Positions 2,397 to 64,000 of a stretch of DNA of 64,000 nucleotides are shown here, one piece after another. The stretch's first letter is position 1; every line of letters starts with the position of its first letter. The position numbers and the translations under genes are program-made. The notes under the pieces were generated by a model that was not told where the DNA came from, ran no database searches, and saw only the letters and a program-made list of their open reading frames with translations. Source of the DNA: Anaerolineae bacterium (lineage in GTDB: Bacteria > Chloroflexota > Anaerolineae > JAAYZQ01); contig JBFYTF010000036.1 of NCBI GenBank assembly GCA_041300865.1, forward strand, positions 34,604-98,603, read 5' to 3'.

Positions 2397-2413
2397 GTTT
2401 CCTCCTTGCCCTG

Positions 2414-3775: not shown

Positions 3776-3798
3776 TGCCCTATGCTCCCTTTCTGTCG

Positions 3799-15115: not shown

Positions 15116-15119
15116 GAGC

Positions 15120-17113: not shown

Positions 17114-17181
17114 GTCTCCACTCCGTGCCACGCACACCAGGTCCATGTGCGCGTGGCACCGATGTCTCTGCCCTCGGACGT

Positions 17182-32616: not shown

Positions 32617-32664
32617 GCGGCCTCCTTTGCCCTGACTTCTCAAGACGACAACGTTCCGGGTGCC

Positions 32665-33144: not shown

Positions 33145-33260
33145 GGCTTACTCCTCCGTCGTTCTTGTCCGCGGCCACTGCGCGGAGCAACTAACCTTCA
33201 GTCAGACATCGAGATGGCTGAGACCATATCGCAATCCGATGGCTTCCGTAATACCGGATC

Positions 33261-34172
33261 TCAGGCGCTGGGTGTCGCATCGGCCAGGGCTTGGCTCAAG
33301 GCACGGCGCACCAAGACTTCGACCATCTGCTTGCGATAATCGGCAGACCCGCGCAAGAGACTGTCTCGAGGTGCGGCGGTTTCAAATGCCTTCTTCGCAG
33401 CTGCAGCGATAACCTGCTCGCTTACCGGAGCATTCAGCAGCACATCCTCGGCCTCGCGGGCCCGAAATGGAACCGGCGCCACAGGCCCAACCGAGATCCT
33501 GGCGTCCGCGAAATGACTATCCTCGACCCTCACGACAACGGCGACGCATACGCTGGGCAGGATCAGGGCCTGACGGCGCGCCAGCCGCTGGAAGGACCAG
33601 CTCGTGGACCCTGGCAGAGGCCGGAAGCGGAGGGCCGTTACTATTTCCTGGCAAGGATCCACGGTACACTTACCGACACCGGTGTAAAAGCTACTGATTG
33701 GCACCCATCGCCGGCCACACCGGTCTAGTATCTCTACATCTGCGTCAAGGGCAAAAAGCGCTACGGCTCCATCGGCAGCGGGCAGAGCGTTTACTACGTT
33801 GCCGACTAGGGTAGCCACGCGTCGAATTTGAGGACCGCCAATGGCCGCACACGCGCGGGCTAATATGCCCGCCTTGGCCTGAATGAGAGAGGAAGCCGCC
33901 ACTTGGGCATGTGTTACCTGTGGACCTATCAGGATCCAGCCGTCTTGTTCTTCAAGGAAGCCCAAACCTGGAACACGTGTGATGTCGACCATCACCTGGC
34001 TGTCGCACTGGCCGCGCTGAGCCTGGAGCACAAGATCCGTGCCGCCAGCGATGATGCGAGCTCGGCCATTATGGTGCTGTAACATTTCCAGGGTTTCGCT
34101 CAGGGTTGCGGGGAAGAGGTACTCGGTCCAGAATGCAGGTTTCCGGTTCTCATTCTCTATCACAGGACTCAT
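33261..34172 (-). CDS. FAD-binding medium subunit of a molybdopterin dehydrogenase (CoxM-like)
   Basis: Motifs [11 protein letters not shown] and VGNVVNALPAADG. Confidence 0.85.
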   Translation of the reverse strand: MSPVIENENRKPAFWTEYLFPATLSETLEMLQHHNGRARIIAGGTDLVLQAQRGQCDSQVMVDITRVPGLGFLEEQDGWILIGPQVTHAQVAASSLIQAKAGILARACAAIGGPQIRRVATLVGNVVNALPAADGAVALFALDADVEILDRCGRRWVPISSFYTGVGKCTVDPCQEIVTALRFRPLPGSTSWSFQRLARRQALILPSVCVAVVVRVEDSHFADARISVGPVAPVPFRAREAEDVLLNAPVSEQVIAAAAKKAFETAAPRDSLLRGSADYRKQMVEVLVRRALSQALADATPSA

Positions 34173-48875: not shown

Positions 48876-50579
48876 TCACTCCACCCATTCCGCCGGCCGG
48901 TCCTGCCTGGCGGCCAAAATGCAGCCCTCGTGACTGGAGCCAACCTCGGCCGCGTAGCGGGCCAGGTAACCGGACAGGCGCTGCTCCCGCGGCTTCCAGG
49001 CGCCGCGCCGTTCCGCCAATGCCTTGGCAGAGACCAGGAGATCCAGGCGCCGGGCGGGAAGGTCAACCACGATCTCGTCGCCGTCCTGCACCAGGGCGAT
49101 GGGGCCGCCGGCCGCCGCCTCGGGGGCAACGTGCCCCACACAGGCGCCACGGGAGCCGCCCGAAAAGCGGCCATCGGTCACGAGCGACACCGTCCTGCCC
49201 AGTTCCTGCCCGGCGAGCAACGTGGCCGGGACATGCATCTCGGGCATCCCGGGCCCCCCTCGCGGGCCCTCGTAGCGGATGACCATGATGTCGCCGGGCT
49301 GCACCGCGTGCCGGCGCAGTGCCTCCACGGCCGCATCTTCGCCTTCGAACACGCGAGCAGGCCCGCGGTGGCAGCGCATCTCGGGCGCCACGGCACTTTG
49401 CTTCACGACCGCGCCCAGGGGCGCCAGGCTGCCGGTGAGGACCGCCAGGCTGCCCTCCGCAGACAGGGGATCTCCTGTCGAGCGCACAACAGACCGCGCC
49501 TCACCGGCGGCGGCCGGCACGTGGTCGGCCAGGGTGCCCCCGGCCGCTGTGGGCAGGTCAAGGTCGAGCCGGTCGCGCAGCTCGGCCATGACGGCCGGGA
49601 TACCCCCGGCCTGGTCCAGGGCCAGCAAGGAGTGCCGCCCGCTGGGCTTGACGTCGCACAGGAACGGCGTCTGGCGGTTGATGGCGTCGAATGCGGACAG
49701 ATCCAGCGGCACACCGGCTTCCCGGGCCAGGGCCAGCAGGTGTAGCACGGTGTTGGTCGAGGCGCCGATGGCGGCCCCGACGGTGATGGCATTGCGCAGC
49801 GATCCTGTGCCGATGATCGCACGGGGACGCAGATTCTCGTGCAGCAGGGCCACTGCCCGGGCGCCACTGCGGTGTGCCTCGCCGCACTTGGCGCCCGACG
49901 TCGCGTGCGTCGTCGCGCTGCGGGGTAGGGCCATGCCCAGGGCCTCGGTCAGGCAGGCCATGCTGTTGGCCGTGCCCATCATCGAGCAGGCACCGGGCCC
50001 GGGGCAGATGTGGCGCTCGATCTCTGCGAGCTGCTCGGCCGAGATGCGCCCCTCCAGGTATCGGCCCGTCGCTTCCCGGGCCTGGTAGACAGCCCACTCG
50101 CGGCCCATGTACCGCCCCGGCTCCATGGGGCCGCCGGGGACGATGATAGCCGGCAAGTTGAGGCGCGACGCGACCAGGAGCGCAGCCGGCAGGCTCTTGT
50201 CGCAGGAGGTGAGGATGACCAGGGCGTCAAAGGCGTGAGCCACGGCCATCACCTCTATCGAGTCGGCGATTAGCTCCCGGCTGGGAAGCGACATGCGCAT
50301 GCCGGCGTGGCCCATGGCCAGCCCGTCGCAGACGCCGATGGTGTTCACCTCGAAGGGCGTGCCGCCGGCTTCCGAGACCCCTTCGGCGGCCGCCCGGGCC
50401 AGCTCGCGCAGATGCGCGTGGCCCGGGTGTCCGCTGCTCCAGGTGCTCACCACGCCGACAAAGGGCCGGTCGAGATCGTCCCGGCCGAGCCCCAGGGAGT
50501 AGAGCAAGCCCCTCTGGCCCGCACGCTCCGGGCCGTCGGTCAGCCTGCGGCTCGGCCAGGTACTCGTCTGGTTGCTCAC
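48876..50579 (-). CDS. IlvD/Edd family dehydratase (dihydroxy-acid / sugar-acid dehydratase)
   Basis: Motifs GVCDGLAMGH, LTSCDKSLPA and PGGPGMPEM. Confidence 0.85.
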   Translation of the reverse strand: MSNQTSTWPSRRLTDGPERAGQRGLLYSLGLGRDDLDRPFVGVVSTWSSGHPGHAHLRELARAAAEGVSEAGGTPFEVNTIGVCDGLAMGHAGMRMSLPSRELIADSIEVMAVAHAFDALVILTSCDKSLPAALLVASRLNLPAIIVPGGPMEPGRYMGREWAVYQAREATGRYLEGRISAEQLAEIERHICPGPGACSMMGTANSMACLTEALGMALPRSATTHATSGAKCGEAHRSGARAVALLHENLRPRAIIGTGSLRNAITVGAAIGASTNTVLHLLALAREAGVPLDLSAFDAINRQTPFLCDVKPSGRHSLLALDQAGGIPAVMAELRDRLDLDLPTAAGGTLADHVPAAAGEARSVVRSTGDPLSAEGSLAVLTGSLAPLGAVVKQSAVAPEMRCHRGPARVFEGEDAAVEALRRHAVQPGDIMVIRYEGPRGGPGMPEMHVPATLLAGQELGRTVSLVTDGRFSGGSRGACVGHVAPEAAAGGPIALVQDGDEIVVDLPARRLDLLVSAKALAERRGAWKPREQRLSGYLARYAAEVGSSHEGCILAARQDRPAEWVE

Positions 50580-50586
50580 AGCTCGC

Positions 50587-51942
50587 CTACTGCACCATGC
50601 CCAGGTCTCGCTCCGCCTGGAAGATGGCGCGGTCGGTGATCTGGATCATCTCGTCGACCTCGGCCTTGGTGATGATCAGCGGCGGGCAGAACTCGATGAT
50701 GTTCTCCACGCGCCTCAGGATCAGGCCCGCCTGCAGGGCAGAGGCCATGATGCGCTCACAGAAGCTGTTCTGCTCGTCAAAGCGCGCCTTGGTCTTCTTG
50801 TCGCTGACAAATTCCACGGCGCACATCAGCCCCAGGCCGCGCACGTCGCCGACGGTGGGATGGCCGGCCAACGAGCGCAGGCCGTCCAGCATGTAGGCCC
50901 CGACCTCAGCCGAGTTCTCGACGAGCCCCTCGCGCTCGATGATCTCGAGATTCTTCAGGCCTGTGGCCGTGGATACCGGATGGTTGTTGTAGGTGTGGAC
51001 GTGCATGAACGTGGGCATGTCCTCCACGATGTACCTCTTGGCCGCCGTGGCGCCGAGGGGCATGTACCCCGAGGAGATGCCTTTGGCCATGACCAGCAGG
51101 TCGGGCTCGACGCCAAAGTGCGTGATGGCAAACATCTTGCCCGTCCGCCCAAAGCCGCACACCACCTCGTCGTCGATGAGCAGCACGCCGTGCTGGTCAC
51201 AGATCTCGCGCAGGCGCGGCCAGTACTCGGGCGGCGGCACCATGCAGCCACCCGCACCCAACACGACTTCGCCGATGACGGCCGCCACCGAGTCGGGCTG
51301 CTCGAACTCGATGATCTGGGCGATCGACTCGGCACACTGCAGGCTGCAATTCGGATACTCGAGGCCAAAGGGGCAGCGGTAGCAATACTGCTCGGGGGCA
51401 AAGTAGTAGCCGGGCGGCAGTGGCTCCATGATCTGGCGCATGGGCGATAACGTGCCTGTGGCAGCCAGGGCGCCCATGGTCGAGCCATGATAGGCGCGGC
51501 GCCGGGAGATGATCTTGTACTTGCGGCGATAGCCTTTGTGATATGCCCATTGCTTGGCCAGCTTGAAGGCCGACTCGACGGCCTCACTGCCATCCTGGGT
51601 AAAAAACACGTAGGGCATGTCGCCGGGCAGGATCTGGCTCAGCTTCGAGGCAAAGTCGATGGCGGGCTGCGCGACAAAGCCGTACGGGCAAAAGTAGTGC
51701 ATCTTGCAGGCCTGGTCGTACATGGTCCGGGCCATCTCTTCGCGCCCGTAGCCGATGAGCACCGCGTACACCCCGCTCGACATGGAGTCCATGTAGCGCC
51801 TGCCCTCTGTGTCCCAGAGATAGATCCCCTCGCCGCGCTCAAAGACCAGGGGGCCCAGCTGGCTTACCTCGGAAGGCGACACGACGGGGAAAATGATGTG
51901 GTCGGTCGCTTGCTGCCGTAGGTTCTTGGTCTGCTCACTCAT
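50587..51942 (-). CDS. Class-III PLP aminotransferase (omega-transaminase type)
   Basis: Motifs LIDDEVVCGFGRTGKMFA and VMAKGISSGYMPLG. Confidence 0.85.
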   Translation of the reverse strand: MSEQTKNLRQQATDHIIFPVVSPSEVSQLGPLVFERGEGIYLWDTEGRRYMDSMSSGVYAVLIGYGREEMARTMYDQACKMHYFCPYGFVAQPAIDFASKLSQILPGDMPYVFFTQDGSEAVESAFKLAKQWAYHKGYRRKYKIISRRRAYHGSTMGALAATGTLSPMRQIMEPLPPGYYFAPEQYCYRCPFGLEYPNCSLQCAESIAQIIEFEQPDSVAAVIGEVVLGAGGCMVPPPEYWPRLREICDQHGVLLIDDEVVCGFGRTGKMFAITHFGVEPDLLVMAKGISSGYMPLGATAAKRYIVEDMPTFMHVHTYNNHPVSTATGLKNLEIIEREGLVENSAEVGAYMLDGLRSLAGHPTVGDVRGLGLMCAVEFVSDKKTKARFDEQNSFCERIMASALQAGLILRRVENIIEFCPPLIITKAEVDEMIQITDRAIFQAERDLGMVQ

Positions 51943-51979: not shown

Positions 51980-53917
51980 TTACAGGCTCAGAACGGCCCG
52001 GGAAGCCGAGTGGATCGCATGGCGGATGGTCCTTGGCTCGGCGCAATCGCCGACTGCGAGGACCTGCGGTGCCACACCCTGCCAATGGCCCGGCAGCCCT
52101 GGGTCCGTCGTGCGTCCCCAGGCTACCAGCACACTGTCCGCCGGGTAGGTGGTTGCCGTCCCGCCTACGTCCGCGGCCACACCGTCGCCGCCGATGGCCG
52201 TGGCGCGGGCATTCGTGACGACCGTCACCCCGGCCTCGTCCAGCATCTTTTTCAGCAACAGCTGCCGGCCCACGTATTGCAGATAGGACGCATCGGCATA
52301 GCTCGCGCTGGGCTCGAGGACGGTGACCTCGTGGTTTCTCCGTCGCAGGGAGAGCGCGGCCTCGATGCCCTCGTTGCCGCCCAGCACGACGACCCGCTCG
52401 CCCAGCTGGGCCGTCCCCTGAAGGTAGGCCAGCAGATCGACCGTGGCCGGCCCGCCGTCCACAGGCAAGCCCGCCGGCAGCGTCTGGGCTCCCACGGCCA
52501 GGATGACGACGTCGGCACCGCCGGCCCGCACCAGCTCGGGGGTCGCTTCCACGCCGACATGGACCTCGACGTGCAGTTTCTCCAGTTCCCGCTGCTGCCA
52601 CTGGATGATGTTCGCCAGCTCGGCCATGTAGACCCGCGGCATGTTCGAGACCAGGCATACCAGCCCGCCGAGGCTGGCCTTTTCGTACAGGGTGACGCTG
52701 TGGCCCTTCAACGCGGCCAGGCGCGCCGCCTCCATGCCGGCCGGCCCACCGCCTACGACGACGACCTTCTTGGGGCGGACGGGCCGCTCCATCCTGGCGC
52801 GGACCTCCTCCTCACGCATGACTTCAAAGTTGATCGAGCAGTCGGCGACCCACTGCACGATATGCCGGTAGGAGCAGCCGATGTCGCAGGCGATGCACTT
52901 GCGCACGTCGTCGTAGCGGCCCTCCTCCATCTTGCGGGGCAGCTCGGGGTCCGCCAGGCTCTGGCGGGCCATGGCCACCATGTCGACCTTGCCCTGGCTC
53001 AGGATCCGCTCCACGAGCTTCGGGTCGTTGATGCGGCCCACGCCGATGACGGGGATGTTCACCTTCTCCTTCACCCGCTCGGCCAGGTAGAGGATCGGCG
53101 CCTTGGGGGAGTAGAGGGGCTGGATGTTGTAATAGACCCGCTCCTGGATGCCCCCCGACACGTCGATGCAGTCGATGCCCAGCTCCTCCAAGAGCGGGGC
53201 ATAGACGTTCGCCGTCTCGTCGATGGTCAACCCCGCGTCGCCCAGGAAGTCGTCGGCGCTGACGCGGTAAAAGAGGGGGTAGTCGGGTCCCACGGCCTCG
53301 CGCACGGCCCGCACGACCTGTTTGACGATGAGGTAGCGGTCCCGGCCGTACTCGTCGGTGCGGCGGTTGCAGTAGGGCGAGACAAACTGGGAGAGCAGGA
53401 AGCCGTGGGCGCCGTGGATCATCACGCCGTCGAACCCGGCCGCCTTGGAGCGCAGCGCGGCGCGCACCCAGGACTGCACGAGCTCCTCAATCTCGGCGAC
53501 GGTCAGCCCCCGCGGCCTTTCGCTCAGAGGCGGTGTCTCGTCCGACGGAGCCAGGGGCTGCCGGCCGGTGAACGCCCGGGGGGCGCAGCGCCCGCCGTGC
53601 ACGAGCTGGATGGTGCATTTGGCGCCGTTGTCATGGATGCCGCACACCAGCTCGCTCAAACCCGGAATCTGGCGGTCGTCGTAGACCCCCAGCATCCGCC
53701 CGAACATGTTGCCGTCGGGCCGGATGTAGGAAGCCTCGACGTGCACCAGCCCCCAACCCCCGGCTGCCTTGGCGGCGTAATAGGGCAGCATCCTGGGCGT
53801 CACGTGCCCGTCCTCCGTCGCATGGTTCATGACCATGGGTGCCGCGACCAACCTGTTCTTCAGGGCCAGCTTGCCGACGTTGATGGGATTAAAAACGGCC
53901 GCACGAGCTTCGCTCAC
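51980..53917 (-). CDS. Old-Yellow-Enzyme-type NADH:flavin oxidoreductase fused to an FAD/NAD(P) reductase domain (2,4-dienoyl-CoA / enoate reductase family)
   Basis: OYE N-terminus (FNPINVGKLALKNRLVAAPM), a CIACDIGC cluster motif and a Rossmann motif VVVVGGGPAGMEAA. GTG start with GGAGGAG. Confidence 0.85.
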   Translation of the reverse strand: MSEARAAVFNPINVGKLALKNRLVAAPMVMNHATEDGHVTPRMLPYYAAKAAGGWGLVHVEASYIRPDGNMFGRMLGVYDDRQIPGLSELVCGIHDNGAKCTIQLVHGGRCAPRAFTGRQPLAPSDETPPLSERPRGLTVAEIEELVQSWVRAALRSKAAGFDGVMIHGAHGFLLSQFVSPYCNRRTDEYGRDRYLIVKQVVRAVREAVGPDYPLFYRVSADDFLGDAGLTIDETANVYAPLLEELGIDCIDVSGGIQERVYYNIQPLYSPKAPILYLAERVKEKVNIPVIGVGRINDPKLVERILSQGKVDMVAMARQSLADPELPRKMEEGRYDDVRKCIACDIGCSYRHIVQWVADCSINFEVMREEEVRARMERPVRPKKVVVVGGGPAGMEAARLAALKGHSVTLYEKASLGGLVCLVSNMPRVYMAELANIIQWQQRELEKLHVEVHVGVEATPELVRAGGADVVILAVGAQTLPAGLPVDGGPATVDLLAYLQGTAQLGERVVVLGGNEGIEAALSLRRRNHEVTVLEPSASYADASYLQYVGRQLLLKKMLDEAGVTVVTNARATAIGGDGVAADVGGTATTYPADSVLVAWGRTTDPGLPGHWQGVAPQVLAVGDCAEPRTIRHAIHSASRAVLSL

Positions 53918-53944: not shown

Positions 53945-55177
53945 TCAGGCCACGCTCTGGGCAGCTGCCCGGCAGGCCACGTCAAGACGAGACAGCGCAT
54001 CCTCGACTTCGGCTGGGGTAATGGTCAGCGGTGGTTCGAGGCGTGCCGTGACGTCGTCGTTGATGGAATCGCCGATGATCACGTGCTGCCGGTGGACCTC
54101 GTCGACGTAGGCAGCCATGATTTCCTTGCTCTGCAGCTCGACGCCGATCATCAGCCCCAACCCCCGCACCTCCTTGATGACCGAGGGGTAGCGGACTTGC
54201 TGATCGCGGAGCCCGGCCATAAACTGCTCCCCCCGCTCGGCGGCTTTGGCCGGCAGGTTCTCCTGCCGCGTGAACTCCATGGCCGCCTTGGCCGCGGCAC
54301 AGCACACAGGGTGCCCACCGAACGTCGTCAGGTGCGAAAGCATGGGGTTGCACAGGGTGTCCATGACCTCGGGCCGCCCGATGAAGGCGCCGAGGGGCAT
54401 GCCACCGCCCAACGCCTTGGCCAGCACCATGATGTCGGGCACCACGTTCCAGTGCTCGCAGGCGAACCAGCGGCCCGTGCGGCCAAAGCCCGTCTGCACC
54501 TCGTCAAAGATCATGAGCGCGCCCGTGCGGTCGCACAGCTCGCGGATGCCGGGCAGGTAGTCGTCGTCGGGGATGCGCACGCCGCCCTCGCCCTGGATGG
54601 GCTCGATGATGATGGCCGCCGTGCGCTCGTCGATGGCCTGGCGTGCCGCCGGCAGGTCGTTGAAGGGGACAAAGTGCACATCGGGTACCAGGGGCTCGAA
54701 GGGCTTGCGATAGTGCTCGCGCCAGGTCACCGACAGCGCGCCGAAGGTGCGCCCGTGAAACGCGCGCTGGCAGGAGATGATGCGGCTGCGACCGGTGTAC
54801 TTGCGAGCCGTTTTCAGTGCGCCCTCGATGCCTTCACAGCCGCTGTTGGTGAAGAACGTCGTCTGCAGCTCCGGCGGCGTGACCTCGGCCAGCAGCCTGG
54901 CGGCCTCCACCTGGATGGGGATGACGTACTTGCCAAAAACCATGGTGTGCATTGACTTGTCCAGCTGGGCCTTGACCGCTGCCACGACTGCGTCGTTGCG
55001 ATGGCCAACGTTACACACGGCAATGCCGGCCAGCAGGTCGAGGTATTCTTCCCCGTCGACGGTGATGATACTGCACCCCTTGGATTCCGCCACGACCATG
55101 TCCTTGGCAAAGGGCGTGGTGCGGCAGATGTACTTCCTGTCGGCTGCGATGTATTCGGCTTTGGTTGCTGCGTCCAT
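53945..55177 (-). CDS. Class-III PLP aminotransferase
   Basis: Motifs MIFDEVQTGFGRTGRWFA and VLAKALGGGMPLG. ATG at 55177 (the track starts at GTG 55186). Confidence 0.85.
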   Translation of the reverse strand: MDAATKAEYIAADRKYICRTTPFAKDMVVAESKGCSIITVDGEEYLDLLAGIAVCNVGHRNDAVVAAVKAQLDKSMHTMVFGKYVIPIQVEAARLLAEVTPPELQTTFFTNSGCEGIEGALKTARKYTGRSRIISCQRAFHGRTFGALSVTWREHYRKPFEPLVPDVHFVPFNDLPAARQAIDERTAAIIIEPIQGEGGVRIPDDDYLPGIRELCDRTGALMIFDEVQTGFGRTGRWFACEHWNVVPDIMVLAKALGGGMPLGAFIGRPEVMDTLCNPMLSHLTTFGGHPVCCAAAKAAMEFTRQENLPAKAAERGEQFMAGLRDQQVRYPSVIKEVRGLGLMIGVELQSKEIMAAYVDEVHRQHVIIGDSINDDVTARLEPPLTITPAEVEDALSRLDVACRAAAQSVA

Positions 55178-55279
55178 AAAACTCACCCTCTGCGATCGTC
55201 TTGGTCCTGCAACTGCTGTTGGGCGTCACGCTGCCCTGCGGACCTGGCCGGACAGCACCGGACCGGGCCGCACCACCTG

Positions 55280-56431
55280 TCACCGGTAGTGCCCAACCTC
55301 CAGGGCAGTATCAAAGGCGGCGACAATGTTCTCCGGTGGCACCATCGCCTGGATGTTGTGCACAGCGGCAAACACATACTCACCCCCGGGGGCCAGGTCG
55401 TCGATGCGGCGCTTCACCTCGTCGGCAACCTCCCGGGGCGTGCCAAACGGCAGGACGTGCTGCGTGTCGACACCGCCGCCCCAGAAGACGATGTGCCGCC
55501 CGTAGCTCTCTTTCAGCTTCCTTGTATCCATCCCGCCGGCCGAGACCTGCACCGGGTTGACGATGTCCACCCCGACGTCGATCAGGTCCGCAATCTGCTC
55601 CGAGACGGCGCCACAGCCGTGGTAGAACAGCCTGGCGCCGGTTTTGTTCTTGATGGCGTCAAAGAGGCGCCTTTGCCTGGGCTTGATCGACCGTCGATAC
55701 AGGTCGGGCGAAATCAGCCAGCCGTGCTGGCCACAAATGTCATCCCAGTAGACAAAGACGTCCAGGAACTCGCCCACCTGGTCGAGATAGTTGTTGCAGG
55801 AGTCGATATAGAGCTCGGTGAGCTGGTCCAGGAGGCGGTTGGCAAAGGCCGGTTCCCGCAGCAGGGCGACGAGAAAACTCTCAAAGCCCATCATCGTCGC
55901 CGGCTGCTCAAAGATGCCACCGCCGATGATGGCGCTGCCCGTCAAAGCGCAGCCCGAGGTCTGGGAGAGGTGCACCGCCTGCTCGCGCAGGCGGCCCAGG
56001 TGGCCGGGCGGATCAAGGGGCGGCCAGGCGTAGGCGTCCAGCGCCTGCGACGTGGCCTCCCGGACGGGGAACTCGACCCAATCGTAGTACAGCCCGCCGT
56101 CTTTGGGCATGTGGAGTTTGGCGCCCCATCGGTCGACGTAGGCATAGTAGGGACCCTCTTCAAAGACCTCGACGGGCTGCATGTCCACCGCCGGCAGCTC
56201 GAGCATGCGCAGGTCCGCCCCGAGGCGAACTTGGAGCTGCTCATCCACGTAGGGCAGCTGCTGGATAGGGTCGACGATGGTCAGCTCTTCGACGTCCATG
56301 CCGAGATATCTCTTTAGCTGGATGTAGGCCTCGCGGTGGATGGACGAGCAGGCGGTGCCGCCAAAGTCGATGGGCACCCGATCCGGCTCCTGGTGATTCA
56401 GCGCGCACGCTACTCGCTGCCGAGAGTCCAC
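55280..56431 (-). CDS. Uroporphyrinogen-decarboxylase (URO-D) family protein (MtaA/CmuA-like fold)
   Basis: N-terminus (V)DSRQRVACALNHQEPDRVPIDFGG. GTG at 56431 preceded by AGGCGAGGA, just after the upstream stop. The track's 73-aa N-terminal extension was rejected. Confidence 0.65.
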   Translation of the reverse strand: MDSRQRVACALNHQEPDRVPIDFGGTACSSIHREAYIQLKRYLGMDVEELTIVDPIQQLPYVDEQLQVRLGADLRMLELPAVDMQPVEVFEEGPYYAYVDRWGAKLHMPKDGGLYYDWVEFPVREATSQALDAYAWPPLDPPGHLGRLREQAVHLSQTSGCALTGSAIIGGGIFEQPATMMGFESFLVALLREPAFANRLLDQLTELYIDSCNNYLDQVGEFLDVFVYWDDICGQHGWLISPDLYRRSIKPRQRRLFDAIKNKTGARLFYHGCGAVSEQIADLIDVGVDIVNPVQVSAGGMDTRKLKESYGRHIVFWGGGVDTQHVLPFGTPREVADEVKRRIDDLAPGGEYVFAAVHNIQAMVPPENIVAAFDTALEVGHYR

Positions 56432-56450: not shown

Positions 56451-57443
56451 CTAGAGGCTGGCCAGGTGTTGCCCCAGAACGGCCAGCGTCTCTGGCAGCA
56501 CGAGCGGCGTGGCACCTGCTCCCCCTGTGGCGAACGTCCCCTGGACCTGGCGCGGCGTACGCCCCGGCGATCGCTCGGCCAGCCTGTCGAGGATGGCGTC
56601 GATCTCGGCCTCGTCGGGGATGCAGCGCACCCAACCGGGGCGAGAGTCATTCACGCCTACCAGGCGCAGCATGCCCTGGCTGGTCTGCCGGCCGAGTGCC
56701 AGTCCGGCGCGGCGCTTTTCCTCGACACTGGTCATGAAGCTGCGGTGCGTCAGCTTGGGGCTGACGAAAGCCAAACGGGCCACGTAGGCATCACCAAACC
56801 GCTCCAACATGGCGACAATCAGCTTGACGAGACGGTTGTGCATCTCGACAAAGGCGGCCTTCTCGTTGTCGCCCCAGCGATAACCGTTCGCGGCCGGTTT
56901 CGCCGTGCAGTCTGGGCGCCAGGGGCAGACCGCAGTGCCCCGGTGCTCGAACAGGCCGGGGTCGTCGTAGCGGGCCACCGGCGACGGCCTGTCGCGAAAG
57001 CGATAGAGCAGCTCGTAAGGGACGAGGGCCATGGGCTCGGAGACGACAAAGCGGTGAAGGTGCAGATCGCCCCGGCACCAGACCCGGTTGTTCAGCGTGC
57101 GGGCATCGGCGCCTGGCGGCAGCGCGGCCAGCAGCTCCGGCGGCTCGTCGCCGGCCTCGACCGGCTGGAAGCCCACCGCGAGCAGGTAGCGGTTAATCGC
57201 CTGGTGCTCATCGCTCAGGCTGTAGGGTTTGACCTTGGTGCAGGGGAGGAGGAGCATGACTGCCTTCCTGCCGGTCACCGGCGGCCGGTACTCGGTCAGC
57301 ATGTAGTGGTGCAGGTCGCGCACCGCGGGGTGGTCCAGCCCCTCGACGTTCTCCTGCGGGCAGAAGAACGTGAGCGTTTCGTCCAGCGTGAACGGTGCGG
57401 CGATCTTGGCATAGGCGGCGCGAACTCGGTCTGCTCTGTCCAT
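56451..57443 (-). CDS. Stand-alone ArcS-C1/DUF5591-like protein
   Basis: 330 aa. LLLPCTKVKPYSLSDEH matches PC-X3-KPY-X2-S-X2-H exactly (P67..H80, nt 57204-57245). ATG at 57443 after AAGGAGGA. The upstream 236 aa of the track ORF overlap the S-component genes and were rejected. Confidence 0.65.
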   Translation of the reverse strand: MDRADRVRAAYAKIAAPFTLDETLTFFCPQENVEGLDHPAVRDLHHYMLTEYRPPVTGRKAVMLLLPCTKVKPYSLSDEHQAINRYLLAVGFQPVEAGDEPPELLAALPPGADARTLNNRVWCRGDLHLHRFVVSEPMALVPYELLYRFRDRPSPVARYDDPGLFEHRGTAVCPWRPDCTAKPAANGYRWGDNEKAAFVEMHNRLVKLIVAMLERFGDAYVARLAFVSPKLTHRSFMTSVEEKRRAGLALGRQTSQGMLRLVGVNDSRPGWVRCIPDEAEIDAILDRLAERSPGRTPRQVQGTFATGGAGATPLVLPETLAVLGQHLASL

Positions 57444-57475
57444 GATGATCCTCGTCCTCCTTGACGGCAATAGCG

Positions 57476-57525
57476 GGTCCCCCCGGCGGTCCCTGGCTGC
57501 TCGCTTCGGGTGAGCCGGGGGGACC
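57476..57525 (-). promoter_or_regulatory. Long-stem intercistronic RNA structure
   Basis: Perfect 12-bp arms ggtccccccggc / gccggggggacc enclose 26 nt that contain a ttcg-looped inner hairpin. No U-tract. Confidence 0.5.
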
Positions 57526-57547
57526 GAGTGCGCGGGATTGCGGTAGA

Positions 57548-58228
57548 TCAGGTAATGATCCCGCGAGTCGCCAGCCCGTAGCGCTCGATGACCGGGGTCA
57601 GCACGCGCAGGAGGATCGGAGCAATGATGATCGTGACGATCATATTCCCGATCCACCAGGCGGTGATCGCCGGCCAGTAGGCGTCGGGAGGCACCAGGCC
57701 ACCCCAGCGCAGGATGGTTACCCCGTAGAGTGCACCGAGACCGTTGGGCACGAGCACGGCAAAGACGAGGAAGAAGAGGATCCCTTTCAGGGAGTAGACG
57801 TCCTTGCCGAGGGGATCCAGACCGAACCGGTGGGCCAGGGTGCGGTAGGCGATCAGCGGGATGCCAAATTGGATCAAGTCCACCAGGGCGAAGGGGATGG
57901 TCAAGAGCACGGGTGTCCCGGCCAGAATTCCGGCGCCGATGAATGAACCGATGTAGCCAATGAGCAGGCCCCAGCCACCAAACCACATGGCAAAGGGGAT
58001 GCCAAAGCCGATGGCCACAAACAGCGCCGAGACGCTGACAATACCGACGGGCAGGGCAATGACCCCCAGCCAGGAGAGGATGGTATAGACGCCTGCGGCC
58101 ACGGCATAGGTTACCAGGCTCACCACCGTCACCGGTGGGTTGGGGTTCCACTTCAGCCCGTAGGGAATGCGTGGGGCGCCGCCCCTCAGCGGGGCAGCAG
58201 CCTGTGTGGGCTGAGTTGCTTCTGACAT
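57548..58228 (-). CDS. ECF-transporter substrate-specific (S) component, paralog 2
   Basis: 226 aa with about 6 hydrophobic segments. YGLKWNPNPPVTV motif shared with the neighbour. AAGGAGG RBS. Confidence 0.65.
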   Translation of the reverse strand: MSEATQPTQAAAPLRGGAPRIPYGLKWNPNPPVTVVSLVTYAVAAGVYTILSWLGVIALPVGIVSVSALFVAIGFGIPFAMWFGGWGLLIGYIGSFIGAGILAGTPVLLTIPFALVDLIQFGIPLIAYRTLAHRFGLDPLGKDVYSLKGILFFLVFAVLVPNGLGALYGVTILRWGGLVPPDAYWPAITAWWIGNMIVTIIIAPILLRVLTPVIERYGLATRGIIT

Positions 58229-58259: not shown

Positions 58260-58928
58260 TCACGTCAGCCAGCCAAAGTTGGTCAAGCCCATGCGCTCGA
58301 CCACAGGGCCCAGCAGGCGCAGCAGGACGGGTCCGACGACGATCACGACGATAAAGTTGCCCGCTATCATGCCCAAAAAGCTCACCAAGAGCATGTTCTG
58401 CGGGACAAAGCCTGCCACGTAGAGCAGCGGTACTCCGTACAATGCCCCGAGGACATGGGGGATCAAGGCACCAAAGATCGCGAAGTAGACAAAGCCCCTG
58501 GCGGTAAAGACGTCTTTGCCGATGGGATCGACTTTGAAACGTTTCGCGAATCCTCGGTAGAGCAGCACGAGGCTTCCGAACAGGATGATGTCCCCAACGC
58601 CGAAAGCCAGGGAGAGAGGTAATGGCAGGCCGGCCAGAATGCCGGCGCCGATGCTCGTGCCGATAAAGCCCATGACCAATCCCCAGAAACCGAACCACAT
58701 GGCGAACGGAACGCCAAAGCCCATGGCGATAAAGAGGCCGCCAATGCCCGGAATCTGGATCGGGCCGGAGACAACACTGATCCACGCCAGGACGGTATAG
58801 ACGCCCGTCGCCAGGGCATACGCCACCAACTGAGGTACCGTGACGGGTGGGTTCGGGTTCCACTTCAGACCGTACTCCATACGCGGTCTGGCGGACACCG
58901 GACCGGACTGTGCAGCCTTGGTAGTCAT
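58260..58928 (-). CDS. ECF-transporter substrate-specific (S) component, paralog 1
   Basis: 222 aa. Clear paralog of 57548-58228 (YGLKWNPNPPVTV, GFGVPFAMWFG, IGAGILAG). AAGGAGA RBS. Confidence 0.65.
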   Translation of the reverse strand: MTTKAAQSGPVSARPRMEYGLKWNPNPPVTVPQLVAYALATGVYTVLAWISVVSGPIQIPGIGGLFIAMGFGVPFAMWFGFWGLVMGFIGTSIGAGILAGLPLPLSLAFGVGDIILFGSLVLLYRGFAKRFKVDPIGKDVFTARGFVYFAIFGALIPHVLGALYGVPLLYVAGFVPQNMLLVSFLGMIAGNFIVVIVVGPVLLRLLGPVVERMGLTNFGWLT

Positions 58929-59052: not shown

Positions 59053-60843
59053 CTAGCCCCGGCTGTAGCCCTCCAGCGCCCTGACCCACTCCACAGTGTT
59101 GAGCAGCAGAGGATAGCCCTCATTCTGCTCTCGGAGCGCAACGCTCAGGGAGATGGCCTGGGGCGCGCACAGCTGCGTGGCCTGGATGTGCTCAGGGTTC
59201 GAGAACAGCTCTCGCGGGCTGCCGGTAAAGATATCGTGCCCGTTGAGCAATACCACTACCCGCTGGCAGTAGTTGGCCACAAGCGTCATGTCGTGGGTAA
59301 TGATCAGCACGGTGTTGCCCTGTTTGTGCAGATCCTCCAGCAGGTTCATGATCCCGCACACCATGTCATAATCCTGGCCGGTGGTTGGTTCATCGACAAT
59401 GATCATCTCGGGGCGCATGGCAAGAATCGAGGCCACCGCCAGGCGCTGTCGTTGCCCTTTGCCCAGGAAGAGCGGATCCTCATGGGCCTGGTCTGCCAGG
59501 CCGACCGCCTCCAGGGCCTGCATGATACGGTCTTCCTTCTCGGCTTCGGGCACCTCCAGGTTCTTGAGACCGTAGGCAACCTCGGCATGGACCTGCCGCG
59601 AAAAGATCTGGTGGTCCGGGTTCTGGAACACGTAGCCCACGTAGCGGGGGAGCTGCCGCCGCAGCGAGCGCTTGGTCACGTCCATGCCCAGGACGCGGAC
59701 GGTGCCGGCGGAGGGCTTGTAGATACCATTCAGGATCTTGGCGACGGTCGTCTTGCCGCTGCCGTTGGTGCCGAGCAGGGCCAGTACCTCGCCCTTGTGC
59801 AGCTCGAAATTGACGCCGTGGAGGGCCTTGGTCCCATCGTCATAGACATATTCCAGATCCTTGACCTCGAGCAGTACCTCCCCATCGGGCTGATAGTCGG
59901 CCGGCTGGCAGGCGCAGTCCAGGTCCTTGGGGAAACACCCCAGGCATTCCTCGACGGAAATCGGTACCGCATCCTGGTCGCCGATACCAGCCTCGGAGGC
60001 GATTTGAGAGACCTCAAAGCGGTAGATGCCAGACTCTGCCAGGACGTCGACGTGCCGGTAGAAATTGGCCGCGGTGTCTACCAGCTTGACCTCACCGTCG
60101 TCGATGAGATAAATCCGGTCACAGAACCGGTGCAGGATCGCCGGGTCCTGCTCCACGAGGATCACGGTCATGTCATGCTCGTCGTGCAGCATCCGCACGG
60201 TCTCGATCACCTCGCTCTTGCCCCGCGGATCGAGGTCGCTGGTGGGCTCGTCGAGGATGAGCAGGTCAGGGCGCATGGCGAGGAAGGAGGCAATCGCAAC
60301 CCGCTGCTTCTGCCCTCCTGACAGATCGTTCGGATGGATATACTCCGCATCCGCGATGAGAAAGCCCAGCCCGACCATCTCCAGGGCTTCGCGCACGCGC
60401 ACTTCGATCTCTTCTTTGGGCAGCTTGAGCATCTGGAGGCCAAACGAGACTTCGTGCAACAGGCTCATTTTGAGGAACTGGTTCTCCGGATCCTGGAGGA
60501 CCATCCCCGCCTTGGCAGCGTTGATGCCGCGCCCCAGGAGCTTGCCCAGGGGCTGATCGTCCATGACGTTGCCTTCGGGGTCGACATCGGTCACCAGCTC
60601 ACCGTCGACCCAGACACTTCCCTGCCAGTGATAGTTGTAGGCCTGGAACGGGACCTTGAGGCCATGGGGGATGATGCCCACAATCGCCTTGCAGGTCGTC
60701 GTCTTGCCGACCCCGCTGGGACCGGTGATGCCGATGAACTCGCCGCGCTGGATCTCCAGGTTGATGCCTTTGAGCGTCCAGGGGTTTTCCTCCAAGCCGC
60801 TGAAACTCGGATACCGCCAGTGCAGGTTTTCGACCTTGACCAT
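59053..60843 (-). CDS. Fused double ECF/cobalt-type ABC ATPase (EcfA-EcfA')
   Basis: Walker A GPSGVGKTT and GTNGSGKTT; signatures LSGGQKQRVAIA and LGKGQRQRLAVA. ATG at 60843, 5 nt after the ecfT stop. Confidence 0.85.
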   Translation of the reverse strand: MVKVENLHWRYPSFSGLEENPWTLKGINLEIQRGEFIGITGPSGVGKTTTCKAIVGIIPHGLKVPFQAYNYHWQGSVWVDGELVTDVDPEGNVMDDQPLGKLLGRGINAAKAGMVLQDPENQFLKMSLLHEVSFGLQMLKLPKEEIEVRVREALEMVGLGFLIADAEYIHPNDLSGGQKQRVAIASFLAMRPDLLILDEPTSDLDPRGKSEVIETVRMLHDEHDMTVILVEQDPAILHRFCDRIYLIDDGEVKLVDTAANFYRHVDVLAESGIYRFEVSQIASEAGIGDQDAVPISVEECLGCFPKDLDCACQPADYQPDGEVLLEVKDLEYVYDDGTKALHGVNFELHKGEVLALLGTNGSGKTTVAKILNGIYKPSAGTVRVLGMDVTKRSLRRQLPRYVGYVFQNPDHQIFSRQVHAEVAYGLKNLEVPEAEKEDRIMQALEAVGLADQAHEDPLFLGKGQRQRLAVASILAMRPEMIIVDEPTTGQDYDMVCGIMNLLEDLHKQGNTVLIITHDMTLVANYCQRVVVLLNGHDIFTGSPRELFSNPEHIQATQLCAPQAISLSVALREQNEGYPLLLNTVEWVRALEGYSRG

Positions 60844-60848
60844 TGTGC

Positions 60849-61919
60849 TCACAGGGCTTCTCCCAAGAGTTCTGTAAAATTGATGCCGAAGCCGACCACG
60901 ACAACCAGGAGCAGGGCGCAAATACCCATCACGATCCAGTCGGCAAGGGTGAAGGGACGGACTTCGTGAAACTCGGTCGGGTCCTTCAGTTGCATCGAAA
61001 AGCCACGGGTGAGAGCGGCATCGCCGACTTCGCTCGAGCGGCGCAGCATCGTGGCCGTCAGTGGGACCGCAATGTACGCCAGATCGGCAATGATGCGCAA
61101 GAGGTTCTTCTGCTTGAGCGAGACACCGCGCGCCACCTGGGCCTGACGGATGGTGCTGTAGTCAAAGAGGGCCATGCTCAGACTGCGCAGCATGGTCGAC
61201 ACAAAAAAGGCCGAGATATAAGGAGCGCGGAACTGGCGCATGGTGCCAATGATCTCGATGTCCCGGCTGGTCATGACCAGCATCAGCGAAACCAACATCA
61301 TCGCCCCGTAGCCCAATGCTTTGGTCACCGCTACCACCAGGTTCTGCGACGATATCGTGATTACCATCGGGCGGAGAAAGTTGAACTCGGTGATCGTGAT
61401 CGACGGGTTGCCAAACACGTAGGTCACCAGCCCGCTCAGGACGAGGCCGCCCACAATCCCCCAGAAGATTCCCTTGCGCACAACGTACCAGGCCACCGCG
61501 AATGCTACAAAGACAACCAACCTGAGAGAGATGCCCAGCGAGATGACCCCCGCATATACAGGAATTCGCGCCACAACAGTTCCGCCGAGGCTTGGGTTAA
61601 AGACCACCCAGGCGAAAGCCATGCCGAACAGGGCGGGGAACATGACAATTGCATAAGACCTGAACACCCAGCGGAGCACGCCGCTGAGATAGAGGCCAAG
61701 AAAAGCGAGTAGGATCATGAGGATTGTACCCACGGGATCCGGATCGTCGGTTTTGATGAACCGGACGACGACGAAGGACAAGATGAGGATCGCGAACAGC
61801 TTGGTCAAGACATGCAGCCGGGCGAGGGGAGAGTCGATTTTGACCGCGAAGAGAAAACTGCGTACCCATTCCTTGCCGTGTACCTGTTCCTGGGTGACCG
61901 GTACGGCGACTTCTGCCAT
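60849..61919 (-). CDS. ecfT: ECF transporter transmembrane (T) component, CbiQ/EcfT family
   Basis: Multi-TM protein with QAQVARGVS (the Ala-Arg-Gly coupling motif). AAGGAG lies 6 nt before the ATG. Confidence 0.75.
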   Translation of the reverse strand: MAEVAVPVTQEQVHGKEWVRSFLFAVKIDSPLARLHVLTKLFAILILSFVVVRFIKTDDPDPVGTILMILLAFLGLYLSGVLRWVFRSYAIVMFPALFGMAFAWVVFNPSLGGTVVARIPVYAGVISLGISLRLVVFVAFAVAWYVVRKGIFWGIVGGLVLSGLVTYVFGNPSITITEFNFLRPMVITISSQNLVVAVTKALGYGAMMLVSLMLVMTSRDIEIIGTMRQFRAPYISAFFVSTMLRSLSMALFDYSTIRQAQVARGVSLKQKNLLRIIADLAYIAVPLTATMLRRSSEVGDAALTRGFSMQLKDPTEFHEVRPFTLADWIVMGICALLLVVVVGFGINFTELLGEAL

Positions 61920-62280: not shown

Positions 62281-62979
62281 CTAGGTTGCGCTTTGCCGCT
62301 TGACAAACTCGACAATACGATTGCCGGCCGTGGTGATATGATCGGCCAGATGTTCTGCCGCCAGGTCTGCATCCCGGGCACGCAACGCCTCGACGATGGC
62401 CCGGTGCTGGGTGATGGACTGCTCGGTGCGGCCGGGAATCATCCACAGCAGATCGGTGGCAAAGCGCGGCCACAGGCGTTCGATGAGGCCGCGCAACGTC
62501 TCGGAGCCCGCGCCCTGGTAGATGGTGGAATGAAACTGGTAATTGACACGGCGGACCTTGACGAGATCCATCTCCTCCCAAGCCTGTTCCATCTCGGTCA
62601 CGAGCCTGTCCAGGGTTTCCAGGTCGGCATCCTGCAGGCGGGCGGCAAACATGCGGACGGCAAGGCACTCCAATGCCACGCGGATGGGTGTGATCTCTCG
62701 AGTGTCTTGGGGGGAGACTTCGGCGACGTAGACGCCCTTGTGGGAAACGTGTTCCAGGAGACCTTCCGTTTCGAGAATGCGCAACACTTCACGCACGGGG
62801 GTGGCGCTCATGCCCAGCCATTCGGCCAGCTCCTGTTGTTTCAGTTTCTGCCCGGGCTTCAGGTCGCCGCGCAGAATGGCCTCGCGCAAAATCCTGGCCC
62901 CGCGTCCTAACTTGGTGCCCAGCCCGTCATCGACGATCACCGGCTGCGCTCCCAGATCGGTCAAACCATTGGTCTCCAT
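62281..62979 (-). CDS. GntR-family transcriptional regulator, FadR/FCD subfamily
   Basis: wHTH segment QQELAEWLGMSATPVREVLRILETEGLL plus a helical FCD-type C-terminus. GGAGGAGGA lies before the ATG at 62979. Confidence 0.85.
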   Translation of the reverse strand: METNGLTDLGAQPVIVDDGLGTKLGRGARILREAILRGDLKPGQKLKQQELAEWLGMSATPVREVLRILETEGLLEHVSHKGVYVAEVSPQDTREITPIRVALECLAVRMFAARLQDADLETLDRLVTEMEQAWEEMDLVKVRRVNYQFHSTIYQGAGSETLRGLIERLWPRFATDLLWMIPGRTEQSITQHRAIVEALRARDADLAAEHLADHITTAGNRIVEFVKRQSAT

Positions 62980-63025
62980 GTTGCCAGGTCCTCCTCCACG
63001 CCGAGTCCGAAGCCATCCGAAATAT

Positions 63026-63054
63026 AATATACAATATACTCGCGCATTTGTCAA
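63026..63054 (-). promoter_or_regulatory. Near-consensus promoter (TTGACA-17-TATATT) in front of the GntR gene
   Basis: On the minus strand, TTGACA is at 63054-63049 and TATATT at 63031-63026. GTATAT-T-GTATAT and TTGTATAT (63034-63027) overlap the -10. Confidence 0.7.
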
Positions 63055-63174
63055 GTGCGCGACTGCGTGGCTAAGGGGGAGAACGCCGTAAGGCGATATC
63101 ACGGGGATTGCCTTTTGAGGAGCCACCCTGGGTGGGGGGTAGCAGATTTGACAGAACCCTGCGCGTTGACGGCG

Positions 63175-64000
63175 CTACCCCCGACCGGCCGGCGAGAACC
63201 GCTGCCGCATGGTGGCCTCTGCTTCGGCCAGGACCCGGCGCTCGTCCCAGACGAGCAGTTGGCCGTTCTGGACGAGCAGTCGCCCGTCGACGATGACCGT
63301 CTCCACATCGCGCGCGGCGCTGGCGCAGTAGACCAGGTTGTTTACGACGTTGTTGATCGGCCGCATGTGGATCCCTGCCAGGTCCACGATGATGATGTCG
63401 GCCCGTTTGCCCGCCTCCAACGAGCCAATTCTGTCGGCCATGCCCAAGGCCCTGGCTCCGGCCGTAGTGGCCATGCGCAGAGCGCTGTAAGCGGGCAGCG
63501 CGGCAGGATCCATCGTCGAGTGCTTTTGCAGAAAGGCACCGACGCGCATGGCTTCGAACAGGTCCATGTTATCGTTCACAGCGCAGGTGTCGGTCCCCAG
63601 CGACACTGTCACGCCGGCGTCCAGCATCTTGGTCACCGGTGCAGTGCCCAACGACAGCTTCATGTGGCACTCGGGATTGTACGATACGGCTGTTCTGCTC
63701 TCCTGCAAAAGCCGTATGTCGGCGTCCGAGACCCAGATGCAGTGTGCCCCCAGGACGTCAGGGCCCAACACCCCCAGCTCGTGAAGGTAATGCACCGGCG
63801 TCTGGCCGTGCAGGCTGTGGATGTTGTCCCAACCGAACTTGCTCTCCGCGATATGGAGATGGATTCCGACCTGGTGTTCATCGGCCAGCCGGCGCACCAG
63901 CCGCAAGAGGTCGGGACTGGCCGAGTTTTCGCATGCCGGACCGTAGCGAAAGGTGACCCGGCCGCCCTTTGACGCCCGGCAGCGATGGATCAACTGCTCG
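63175..64000 (-). CDS. Metal-dependent amidohydrolase (chlorohydrolase / deaminase family), C-terminal part; N-terminus lies outside the window
   Basis: Motifs HLHIAES, LGTDTCAVN and GSLEAGKRADIIIVD. The frame stays open to the window edge. Confidence 0.8.
   Translation of the reverse strand, partial: EQLIHRCRASKGGRVTFRYGPACENSASPDLLRLVRRLADEHQVGIHLHIAESKFGWDNIHSLHGQTPVHYLHELGVLGPDVLGAHCIWVSDADIRLLQESRTAVSYNPECHMKLSLGTAPVTKMLDAGVTVSLGTDTCAVNDNMDLFEAMRVGAFLQKHSTMDPAALPAYSALRMATTAGARALGMADRIGSLEAGKRADIIIVDLAGIHMRPINNVVNNLVYCASAARDVETVIVDGRLLVQNGQLLVWDERRVLAEAEATMRQRFSPAGRG

Follow-up and report, generated by a model that had tools for sequence, protein, structure and literature searches.

What does a bacterial protein do with the catalytic motif of archaeosine synthase (ArcS) when the genes around it encode importers and ring-degrading enzymes? 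The question is raised by a 64,000-nucleotide (nt) stretch of contig JBFYTF010000036.1 from an Anaerolineae bacterium (positions 34,604 to 98,603; hereafter the window), in which a 330-residue protein, here called the target, carries the motif PC-X3-KPY-X2-S-X2-H. As judged from profile alignments, the target genuinely belongs to the ArcS C1/DUF5591 superfamily, in a stand-alone and strongly diverged form. The analysis points to an uncharacterised bacterial offshoot of that superfamily, recruited to the small-molecule metabolism of nitrogen (N)-heterocycles, and to an uncharacterised small-molecule reaction, because the gene context consists of importers and ring-degrading enzymes and not of tRNA or DNA modification genes. 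Two points were absent from the initial annotation of the locus: stand-alone C1 proteins were already known, and it is the catabolic context that makes this family distinctive.

The target protein and its relation to ArcS

The gene and its motif are placed as follows.

56451..57443, minus strand: target, a stand-alone divergent ArcS-C1/DUF5591 homolog of 330 residues (translation, Pfam, hhalign, AF2, BFVD)
57204..57245, minus strand: motif PCTKVKPYSLSDEH (exact match, unique in the window, invariant in the family)

The exact ArcS motif claimed by the initial annotation, at residues P67 to H80 of a 330-residue protein, was borne out by translation and by a regular-expression search: the interval translates to 330 residues followed by a stop codon, and P67-H80 read PCTKVKPYSLSDEH. 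The motif occurs once in the six-frame translation of the window, the chance expectation from the window's own amino acid composition being 2.1e-5. Residues P67, C68, K72, P73, Y74, S77 and H80 are all invariant in a 32-sequence alignment of the family, and the loss of the motif that had been considered for close homologs was not seen, with retention in 82 of 85 homolog open reading frames (ORFs) from genomes and in 113 of 114 full-length database homologs. The mechanical ORF of the target extends 5' to a GTG at 58151, giving 566 residues; the ATG at 57443 is likely the real start, because a AAGGAGGA ribosome-binding site lies about 10 nt 5' of it, all 32 aligned homologs start within a few residues of it, and the 5' extension overlaps a separate gene at 57548-58228.

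Family models from public collections responded to the target weakly. Pfam DUF5591 (PF17884), the sole Pfam match of the protein, was passed marginally (26.6 bits against a cutoff of 26.0; residues 48-86, profile positions 8-43 of 150), and the NCBIfam ArcS models NF040592 and NF053620 gave 26.3 and 23.2 bits against cutoffs of 600 and 440. A phmmer search of PDB sequences with the single target protein found no match, and the family profile matched 2q07 (AF0587) alone (E = 0.002, residues 39-86, at the motif). The family itself comprises 370 database homologs, nearly all of about 330 residues and all unnamed, and an alignment of 32 homologs (47-84% identity) has 58 invariant columns, every motif residue included; these columns, together with the retention of the motif at 82 of 85 loci, may be read as signs of an enzyme and not of a relic.

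It was the comparison of this family alignment with other alignments that extended the similarity beyond the motif; the chance match that the initial annotation had considered, with an alignment confined to the motif, was not borne out. With hhalign, the ArcS2 protein of STSV2 was matched at 97.7% probability (E = 2.5e-12, residues 33-162) and that of Methanobacterium virus PhiF1 at 97.3%, and a template family of 20 stand-alone DUF5591 proteins, from Sulfolobales and viruses, was matched at 99.25% (E = 5.8e-20) over 148 columns, spanning target residues 28-250 and template residues 22-167 of 185. Besides the motif, the two families have in common HR-V-SEPM-LVP-E, Y-D-P, an E-K helix and (V/L)-P-x-x-H, so written in the target's own C1 core as the motif-ending strand, the HR-VVSEPM-LVPYE strand, YDDP, the EK helix and a VSP-LTHRSF segment. 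The bacterial family has in addition two highly conserved insertions, at about residues 92-126 and 163-187 (the latter with an invariant YDDPGLFE-R...W-R-D), and a helical C-terminal extension of about 80 residues where ArcS has its C2 and PUA RNA-binding modules.

An exhaustive hidden Markov model (HMM) search of 1.84e9 cluster representatives returned 227 proteins at E <= 1e-3, 37 of them at E <= 1e-30, and in its weak tail stood P0298 (TGT, DUF5591 and PUA), P0281 (DUF5591, TGT_C2 and PUA) and P0275 (DUF5591 and PUA); the family profile aligns to true ArcS proteins over residues 34-147. By tblastn against phages, ArcS2 genes were matched at residues 36-87 only, and profile methods reach further. 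Two apparent fusions were rejected: P0176 (LacI plus target) is a LacI regulator ORF run into the target gene on a high-GC contig, and P0230 (706 residues) is a merged or frameshifted high-GC call with an Arg-rich out-of-frame translation. No account of the bacterial family was found in the literature on DUF5591, 7-deazaguanine catabolism, AF0587 or 2q07.

Structure prediction, also proposed initially, gave a divided answer. The AF2 model of the target is confident (pLDDT 92.9, pTM 0.91), and its top BFVD match is the predicted DUF5591/ArcS2 protein of Vibrio phage nt-1 (probability 1.00, E = 4e-3; TM 0.55 on the target, 0.40 on the query), but the comparison with PDB structures produced nothing significant, so that structural membership in DUF5591 would rest on a predicted viral model and on profile alignments. 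A fold like that of uracil-DNA glycosylase, which had been expected, appeared as two insignificant BFVD rows (ranks 8 and 45), and no claim is made for it.

The description of the target as a stand-alone protein likewise held, the Pfam scan showing no TGT, TGT_C2 or PUA domain in it. About 48 ORFs, covering nearly all 64 kb of the window, were scanned with Pfam or NCBIfam, a few intervals free of a long called ORF (e.g. 47.1-48.9 kb) lying outside the scan; among these ORFs no Radical_SAM, QueC/D/E/F or TGT/DpdA match was reported, in agreement with the claim that no radical-SAM gene is adjacent. Radical-SAM, que and TGT/DpdA genes were also not found in the Pfam-annotated neighbourhoods of six homologs, nor were families of the QueT or YhhQ type in the scanned window or the Pfam-annotated homolog loci. 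Since the domains (TGT, C2, PUA) and the genes (radical-SAM, Que, TGT) were not found, the target is neither ArcS nor a phage-type ArcS2 module.

Comparison with the characterised proteins sharpens this placement. Euryarchaeal ArcS (alpha subunit) has the identical motif, and the profile of the target family retrieves true ArcS proteins; however, the target lacks the TGT-like N domain, C2 and PUA, no RaSEA partner was found for it, and it is bacterial, has two insertions and a C-terminal extension, sits in a catabolic context and scores far below the ArcS cutoffs. Stand-alone C1 proteins had been described before as ArcS2 of phages and archaeal viruses and as the "short" ArcS of Sulfolobales, and ArcS2 of Vibrio phage nt-1 yielded 2'-deoxyarchaeosine (dG+) in E. 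coli (PMC10516641). With these proteins (nt-1, STSV2, PhiF1, Sulfolobales) the target shares the stand-alone C1 core, nt-1 being the top structural match, but they have about 180-230 residues, are encoded with DpdA/TGT and genes for 7-cyano-7-deazaguanine (preQ0), and act on DNA (PMC10516641), whereas the target, at 330 residues, contains conserved insertions and stands among genes for importers and amidohydrolases. AF0587 of Archaeoglobus fulgidus (PDB 2q07), the only solved structure with a DUF5591 domain and matched by STSV2 ArcS2 at E = 3.6e-8, carries a PUA domain, which the target lacks.

Uptake and degradation genes around the family

A scan of one genome per GTDB species found relatives of the target in 192 species, among them species in Chloroflexota; in Acidimicrobiia, sponge symbionts included; in the other Actinomycetota Microbacterium, Actinocorallia and Conexibacter; in the Alphaproteobacteria Bradyrhizobium, Maritimibacter, Pseudooceanicola, Parvibaculum and Methylobacterium; and in single metagenome-assembled genomes (MAGs) of Lachnospiraceae, Vicinamibacteria and Elusimicrobia. 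There was no archaeon among the best 80 relatives. The closest named relatives are MAGs of Chloroflexia and Anaerolineales, a copy of the target identical at 99% and followed by the same 3' genes lies on a MAG contig (GCA_041300835.1), and cultured carriers exist among Bradyrhizobium, Microbacterium and roseobacter-group strains, for example Bradyrhizobium elkanii WSM2783, Microbacterium aquimaris KCTC 19124 and Maritimibacter alkaliphilus.

Neighbour statistics were drawn from 85 loci in at least four phyla, in which ORFs were called (third-position GC above first-position GC, GC3 > GC1, as filter, with the target ORF forced) and clustered, and the cluster representatives annotated. Four gene orders were seen, and they follow taxonomy; ATP-binding cassette (ABC) and energy-coupling factor (ECF) importers, xanthine dehydrogenase (XDH) and aldehyde ferredoxin oxidoreductase (AFOR) are abbreviated here, and "target" stands for the homolog at each locus.

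Type A (that of the window): ECF importer, two S-like proteins, target, URO-D, class-III aminotransferase, OYE
Type B: PreT/PreA/XDH, CN-hydrolase, TRZ-amidohydrolase, target, HDAC-like, Bmp-ABC importer, class-III aminotransferase, AFOR
Type C: dihydropyrimidinase-like, isochorismatase, AA_synth, amidohydrolase, DUF1989, target, class-II aldolase (closest to PhtC decarboxylase), class-III aminotransferase, TRZ-amidohydrolase, amine oxidase, O-methyltransferase
Type D: HpaB, amidase, PuuE-type deacetylase, TRZ-amidohydrolase, flavin monooxygenase, target, 325-residue protein matching no Pfam family, NMT1/THI5-type ABC importer

The homolog loci are uptake and degradation clusters for N-heterocycles. 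Over the 85 loci three importer types were found (ECF, Bmp-ABC and NMT1/THI5-ABC), and because these three unrelated types serve the same enzyme set, an imported substrate is argued; the enzymes, for their part, suggest that a nitrogen-rich ring is broken down by hydrolysis and reduction, or by oxygenolysis in aerobes. The initial annotation's suggestion that both substrate and amine donor may differ from those of ArcS agrees with this setting of N-heterocycle uptake and catabolism in four gene orders. No partner is more constant than a TRZ/ATZ (SsnA-like) amidohydrolase, which occurs at 58 of the 85 loci and adjoins the target homolog in 16, with none within 10 kb at the remaining 27; in Anaerolineae its stop codon and the start of the target overlap by 8 nt or are separated by a gap of 7-9 nt. 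Other partners are DUF1989 (25 of 85 loci, adjoining in 19), class-III aminotransferase (25), isochorismatase (23), ALDH (20) and CN_hydrolase (18).

Several of the recurrent neighbours are themselves uncharacterised. In Alphaproteobacteria, a protein of about 325 residues ("unk325"; L067:3790-4767, and also in L058, L063, L065 and other loci) matches no Pfam or NCBIfam family and was found in 20 loci, adjoining the target homolog in 15, which makes it a second uncharacterised family tied to the system. Two further neighbours have no Pfam match, c22 (L038:11244-12761, about 505 residues, 10 loci) and c28 (L055:5843-7000, about 385 residues, 8 loci). DUF1989 (urea-amidolyase-associated, carboxyguanidine-deiminase-like) stands directly 5' of the target homolog in 19 Actinomycetota loci, and in type-C loci (L031, L036, L050, L069 and others) it occurs together with AA_synth (PF06684), a combination that may point to reactions of the guanidine or ureido type within this pathway.

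In the window, the genes read 5' to 3' in the order given here, the target lying between the hairpin and the URO-D/MtaA-like gene.

63175..64000, minus strand: TRZ/ATZ (COG0402, SsnA-like) amidohydrolase, C-terminal part, running off the window (PRK06038, PRK07228, model positions 166-432)
63026..63054, minus strand: sigma-70-like promoter candidate, TTGACA-17-TATATT (a consensus match only, at 11 of 12 positions)
62281..63126, minus strand: GntR/FCD transcription regulator (PF00392, PF07729)
60849..61919, minus strand: ECF T (CbiQ-type) transmembrane component (PF02361 CbiQ, 45.8 bits)
59053..60921, minus strand: fused ECF A-A' ATPase (TIGR04520 at 415 and TIGR04521 at 410 bits, above cutoff; two ABC_tran)
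58260..58928, minus strand: membrane protein of 222 residues, putative ECF S component (paralog of 57548-58228)
57548..58228, minus strand: small polytopic membrane protein of 226 residues, putative novel ECF S component (position, paralogy)
57470..57525, minus strand: GC-rich hairpin with a 12-bp perfect stem, GGUCCCCCCGGC / GCCGGGGGGACC (sequence, RNA fold)
55280..56377, minus strand: URO-D/MtaA-like protein, after a 73-nt gap 3' of the target (PF01208, 75.6 bits)
53945..55186, minus strand: class-III aminotransferase (PF00202, 376 bits)
51980..53917, minus strand: OYE/FadH-type flavin oxidoreductase, candidate ring reductase (PF00724, PF07992)
50587..51942, minus strand: second class-III aminotransferase (syntenic in close homolog loci)
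48876..50579, minus strand: ILVD/EDD-family dehydratase (syntenic in close homolog loci)

The target appears to be co-transcribed with the GntR/FCD regulator, the ECF importer, the URO-D-like protein, the aminotransferases and the OYE-type reductase, and the amidohydrolase at the window's edge is a member of the family that recurs most constantly near the target homologs. The promoter-like site falls within the mechanical GntR ORF, ahead of the GntR-ECF-target gene string, for which reason the real GntR start is placed, as probable, near 62980, downstream of the site; the transcription unit may begin at this candidate. The two S-like proteins have no Pfam family and no PDB relative, and they gave just sub-threshold MASE1 matches when assignment to a known ECF S family was attempted; they are kept as a pair in the close homolog loci L001 and L009-L011 (cluster c40), and since they adjoin the ECF T and A-A' genes, these two membrane proteins of about 220 residues are probably a new ECF S-component family. 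In the 104-nt spacer that separates the target from the second S-like gene, the hairpin precedes the AAGGAGGA site, and it has no U-tail and was not called as a terminator; the RNA fold of 57435-57550 has -52.6 kcal/mol (z = -3.3), and the hairpin might set differential expression or mRNA stability between transporter and enzyme genes. Of the genes 3' of the target, the URO-D/MtaA-like one encodes 365 residues in the 99%-identical contig and has the same position in L001, and the OYE/FadH-type protein is closest, among NCBIfam models, to BaiCD, mycofactocin OYE_2 and bilirubin reductase, all below cutoff.

Essentially every gene of the window lies on the minus strand, in a near-uninterrupted island from 1 to 64000, and the window as a whole is an N-heterocycle uptake and degradation island. 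Further 3' of the target come an amine-oxidase-like flavoprotein, three Amidohydro_1 proteins, an HDAC-like amidohydrolase and two Bmp-type ABC importers; farther on are two XDH-type molybdenum (Mo) enzymes, an AFOR, a double isochorismatase and PreA/PreT-like reductases (two PreA-like and one PreT-like in the window); and last come a YgeW-like carbamoyltransferase, PrpD, PrpF, an aconitase-like protein, an HMGL-like lyase, a CoA ligase and an Amidohydro_1 protein (3799-5025). There are at least four Amidohydro_1 genes, by one count five, besides the truncated TRZ/ATZ amidohydrolase. The positions of some of these genes are as follows.

40370-42385, minus strand: tandem-duplicated Bmp/PnrA-like binding protein, 671 residues with two Bmp stretches
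30397-34172: conventional three-subunit XDH-type set
18474-22172, minus strand: XDH-type single polypeptide of 1232 residues with fused FAD, 2Fe-2S and molybdopterin modules
15956-17704, minus strand: double isochorismatase, 582 residues, two domains
1188-3832 and 13955-15370: PreA/PreT-like reductases

The layout of the island resembles the reductive uricolytic pathway but is much larger. The window and the type B loci share with reductive uricolytic clusters the XDH-type Mo enzymes, PF01180/PreT-like reductases and SsnA-superfamily amidohydrolases, together with a dihydropyrimidinase-like hydrolase and a YgeW-like carbamoyltransferase (PMC12507026), and they follow the XdhD to YgfK/UacX to SsnA logic of the reductive uric acid pathway (PMC12507026). 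However, the neighbouring amidohydrolases score 134-158 bits against SsnA cutoffs of 444-455, other TRZ/ATZ models scoring better, and are thus not SsnA orthologs, and no DUF5591 component has been described in that pathway; the substrate of the target is probably a different one.

Possible reactions of the target

If the target is an enzyme, what might it act on? Small-molecule C1 chemistry is suggested by the strict retention of the C1 site, the loss of the RNA-binding modules and the gain of conserved insertions. In the ArcS reaction lysine is joined, through its epsilon-amine, to the preQ0 nitrile carbon, and the T. kodakarensis enzyme takes the free preQ0 nucleoside and, efficiently, its 5'-monophosphate, though not the free base (PMC11298593); the C1 domain therefore needs no RNA. 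By analogy, the target is tentatively put forward as a small-molecule C1-type enzyme whose reaction, on a purine-like heterocycle taken up from outside, would form or cleave a C-N bond at a carbon of the nitrile or amidine type, a reading that stands somewhat short of probable.

Under this proposal, an imported purine-like heterocycle, as base or nucleoside, would be bound by the target, and the Cys68/Lys72/Tyr74/Ser77/His80 site would make or break a C-N bond at an exocyclic carbon. Cys68 would be the likely nucleophile, by analogy with QueF and QueF-L, in which the nitrile of preQ0 is attacked by a conserved Cys and the thioimide so formed is resolved by hydride or ammonia (PMC5485725); these T-fold enzymes (nitrile reductase and amidinotransferase) are functional analogues of unrelated fold, and have no sequence similarity to the target. 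Deamination or ring opening of the product would fall to the TRZ/ATZ (SsnA-like) amidohydrolase that is conserved along with the target, and later steps may be carried out by the neighbouring reductase, decarboxylase-type proteins and aminotransferases.

A number of points weigh against this proposal. We know of no nitrile-bearing heterocycle abundant enough to justify ABC-type uptake. Pfam and NCBIfam detect just the motif region, about 40 residues, and Foldseek found no significant PDB match to the model, 2q07 not being among the 50 matches listed. The neighbour counts come from a simple ORF caller written for this analysis and run, for the most part, on MAG contigs; neighbour sets vary considerably among phyla, so that the family may lack a single substrate; no family of defined specificity was matched by the S-like components or the binding proteins; and the Rfam search found no riboswitch in the window and 7 homolog loci. 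Finally, it is QueF and QueF-L, and not ArcS C1, for which a covalent Cys-thioimide mechanism has been documented (PMC5485725), and the role given to Cys68 is an analogy. The transporter and enzyme types brought other substrates into consideration, namely thiamine-pyrimidine, riboflavin or lumichrome, vitamin B6, creatinine or hydantoin, and guanidino compounds, which were neither supported nor excluded.

The main alternative is that the C1 scaffold and pocket serve other chemistry, unrelated to nitrile or amidine carbons, such as hydrolysis, isomerisation or the trapping of an unstable reduced-ring or ureido intermediate, or that the target is a substrate-binding or accessory subunit of the TRZ/ATZ amidohydrolase; this is rather unlikely, if far from negligible. 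The insertions and the extension hold invariant residues that a canonical C1 domain lacks (YDDPGLFE-R, W175-R176-D178, W190-G191, THRSF, LPE), which is consistent with other chemistry, and the tight juxtaposition of target and amidohydrolase genes in Anaerolineae with an accessory role. The reductive urate pathway offers a precedent, its unstable intermediates needing coupled partners and the product of its reductase being seen only in coupling with SsnA (PMC12507026). However, the ArcS motif residues are invariant over about 40-84% identity and four phyla, which argues for an ancestral catalytic site still in use, and the 27 loci lacking a TRZ/ATZ amidohydrolase within 10 kb also weigh against the alternative.

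It is improbable, though more specific, that the target is a dedicated 7-deazapurine enzyme, acting on free preQ0, the archaeosine base, or queuine-derived or toyocamycin-type compounds, in base or nucleoside form, as a catabolic entry or in salvage. Equally improbable is the wider claim that it is the signature enzyme of an undescribed bacterial pathway for import and degradation or recycling of free 7-deazapurines (preQ0, archaeosine base, queuine or preQ1 derivatives, toyocamycin-type nucleosides), with ArcS-type chemistry at the C7 nitrile or amidine; the deaminase, amidase/nitrilase, decarboxylase-type and ring-reducing neighbours would complete such a route. No substrate of the superfamily is known other than nucleosides or nucleotides of 7-cyano-7-deazaguanine, whether free or within RNA or DNA (PMC11298593, PMC10516641). 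Several neighbours would fit a route in which a nitrile or amidine becomes an amide and then a carboxylate, with decarboxylation and deamination to follow, in the form of CN_hydrolase/amidase proteins, URO-D or class-II-aldolase-type proteins directly 3', and amidohydrolases of the guanine deaminase family; an aminotransferase or amine oxidase with ALDH could act on an aminomethyl side chain, and an ECF importer suits a trace metabolite. On the other hand, queC/D/E/F, tgt, QueT and YhhQ-type genes were not found in the scanned window or the Pfam-annotated homolog loci, the Rfam search of the window and 7 loci gave no preQ1 riboswitch, the high-capacity Bmp- and NMT1-type ABC importers and the very large islands suggest a more abundant substrate, and catabolism of 7-deazapurines is not described in the literature searched.

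An ArcS- or ArcS2-type modification of nucleic acids, giving archaeosine-like bases in bacterial tRNA or DNA, is very improbable. The exact C1 motif and the homology to ArcS2, which forms dG+ in DNA, would agree with it, but the target lacks PUA, C2 and TGT domains, the scanned window and Pfam-annotated loci show no DpdA/TGT, preQ0-synthesis or radical-SAM gene, the scores of 23-26 bits compare with NCBIfam ArcS cutoffs of 440-600, and an operon-like arrangement with importers and catabolic enzymes is kept in four gene orders. A chance short motif in an unrelated or non-coding ORF, for which the marginal Pfam and NCBIfam matches of about 40 residues might speak, can be set aside in view of the expectation of 2e-5, the 370 full-length conserved homologs, the hhalign probability of 99.25% over 148 columns and the confident AF2 model.

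Meaning for the C1/DUF5591 superfamily

Elsewhere the C1/DUF5591 domain is known only for completing archaeosine formation, in the tRNA of archaea and the DNA of viruses. The target family is a compact, well-conserved bacterial branch that has lost the nucleic-acid-binding modules and is found in islands for the uptake and degradation of N-heterocycles. If the small-molecule C1 enzyme proposed above is correct, ArcS-type C-N chemistry would be extended to small molecules and an unassigned step of N-heterocycle catabolism would be filled. To our knowledge no catabolic route for 7-deazapurines has been recognised, and if the substrates are of that kind, the family could show how bacteria dispose of or recycle them. 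The family would also be useful as a marker gene for N-heterocycle islands, and it offers a tractable stand-alone system in which to study how the C1 domain works as a catalyst.

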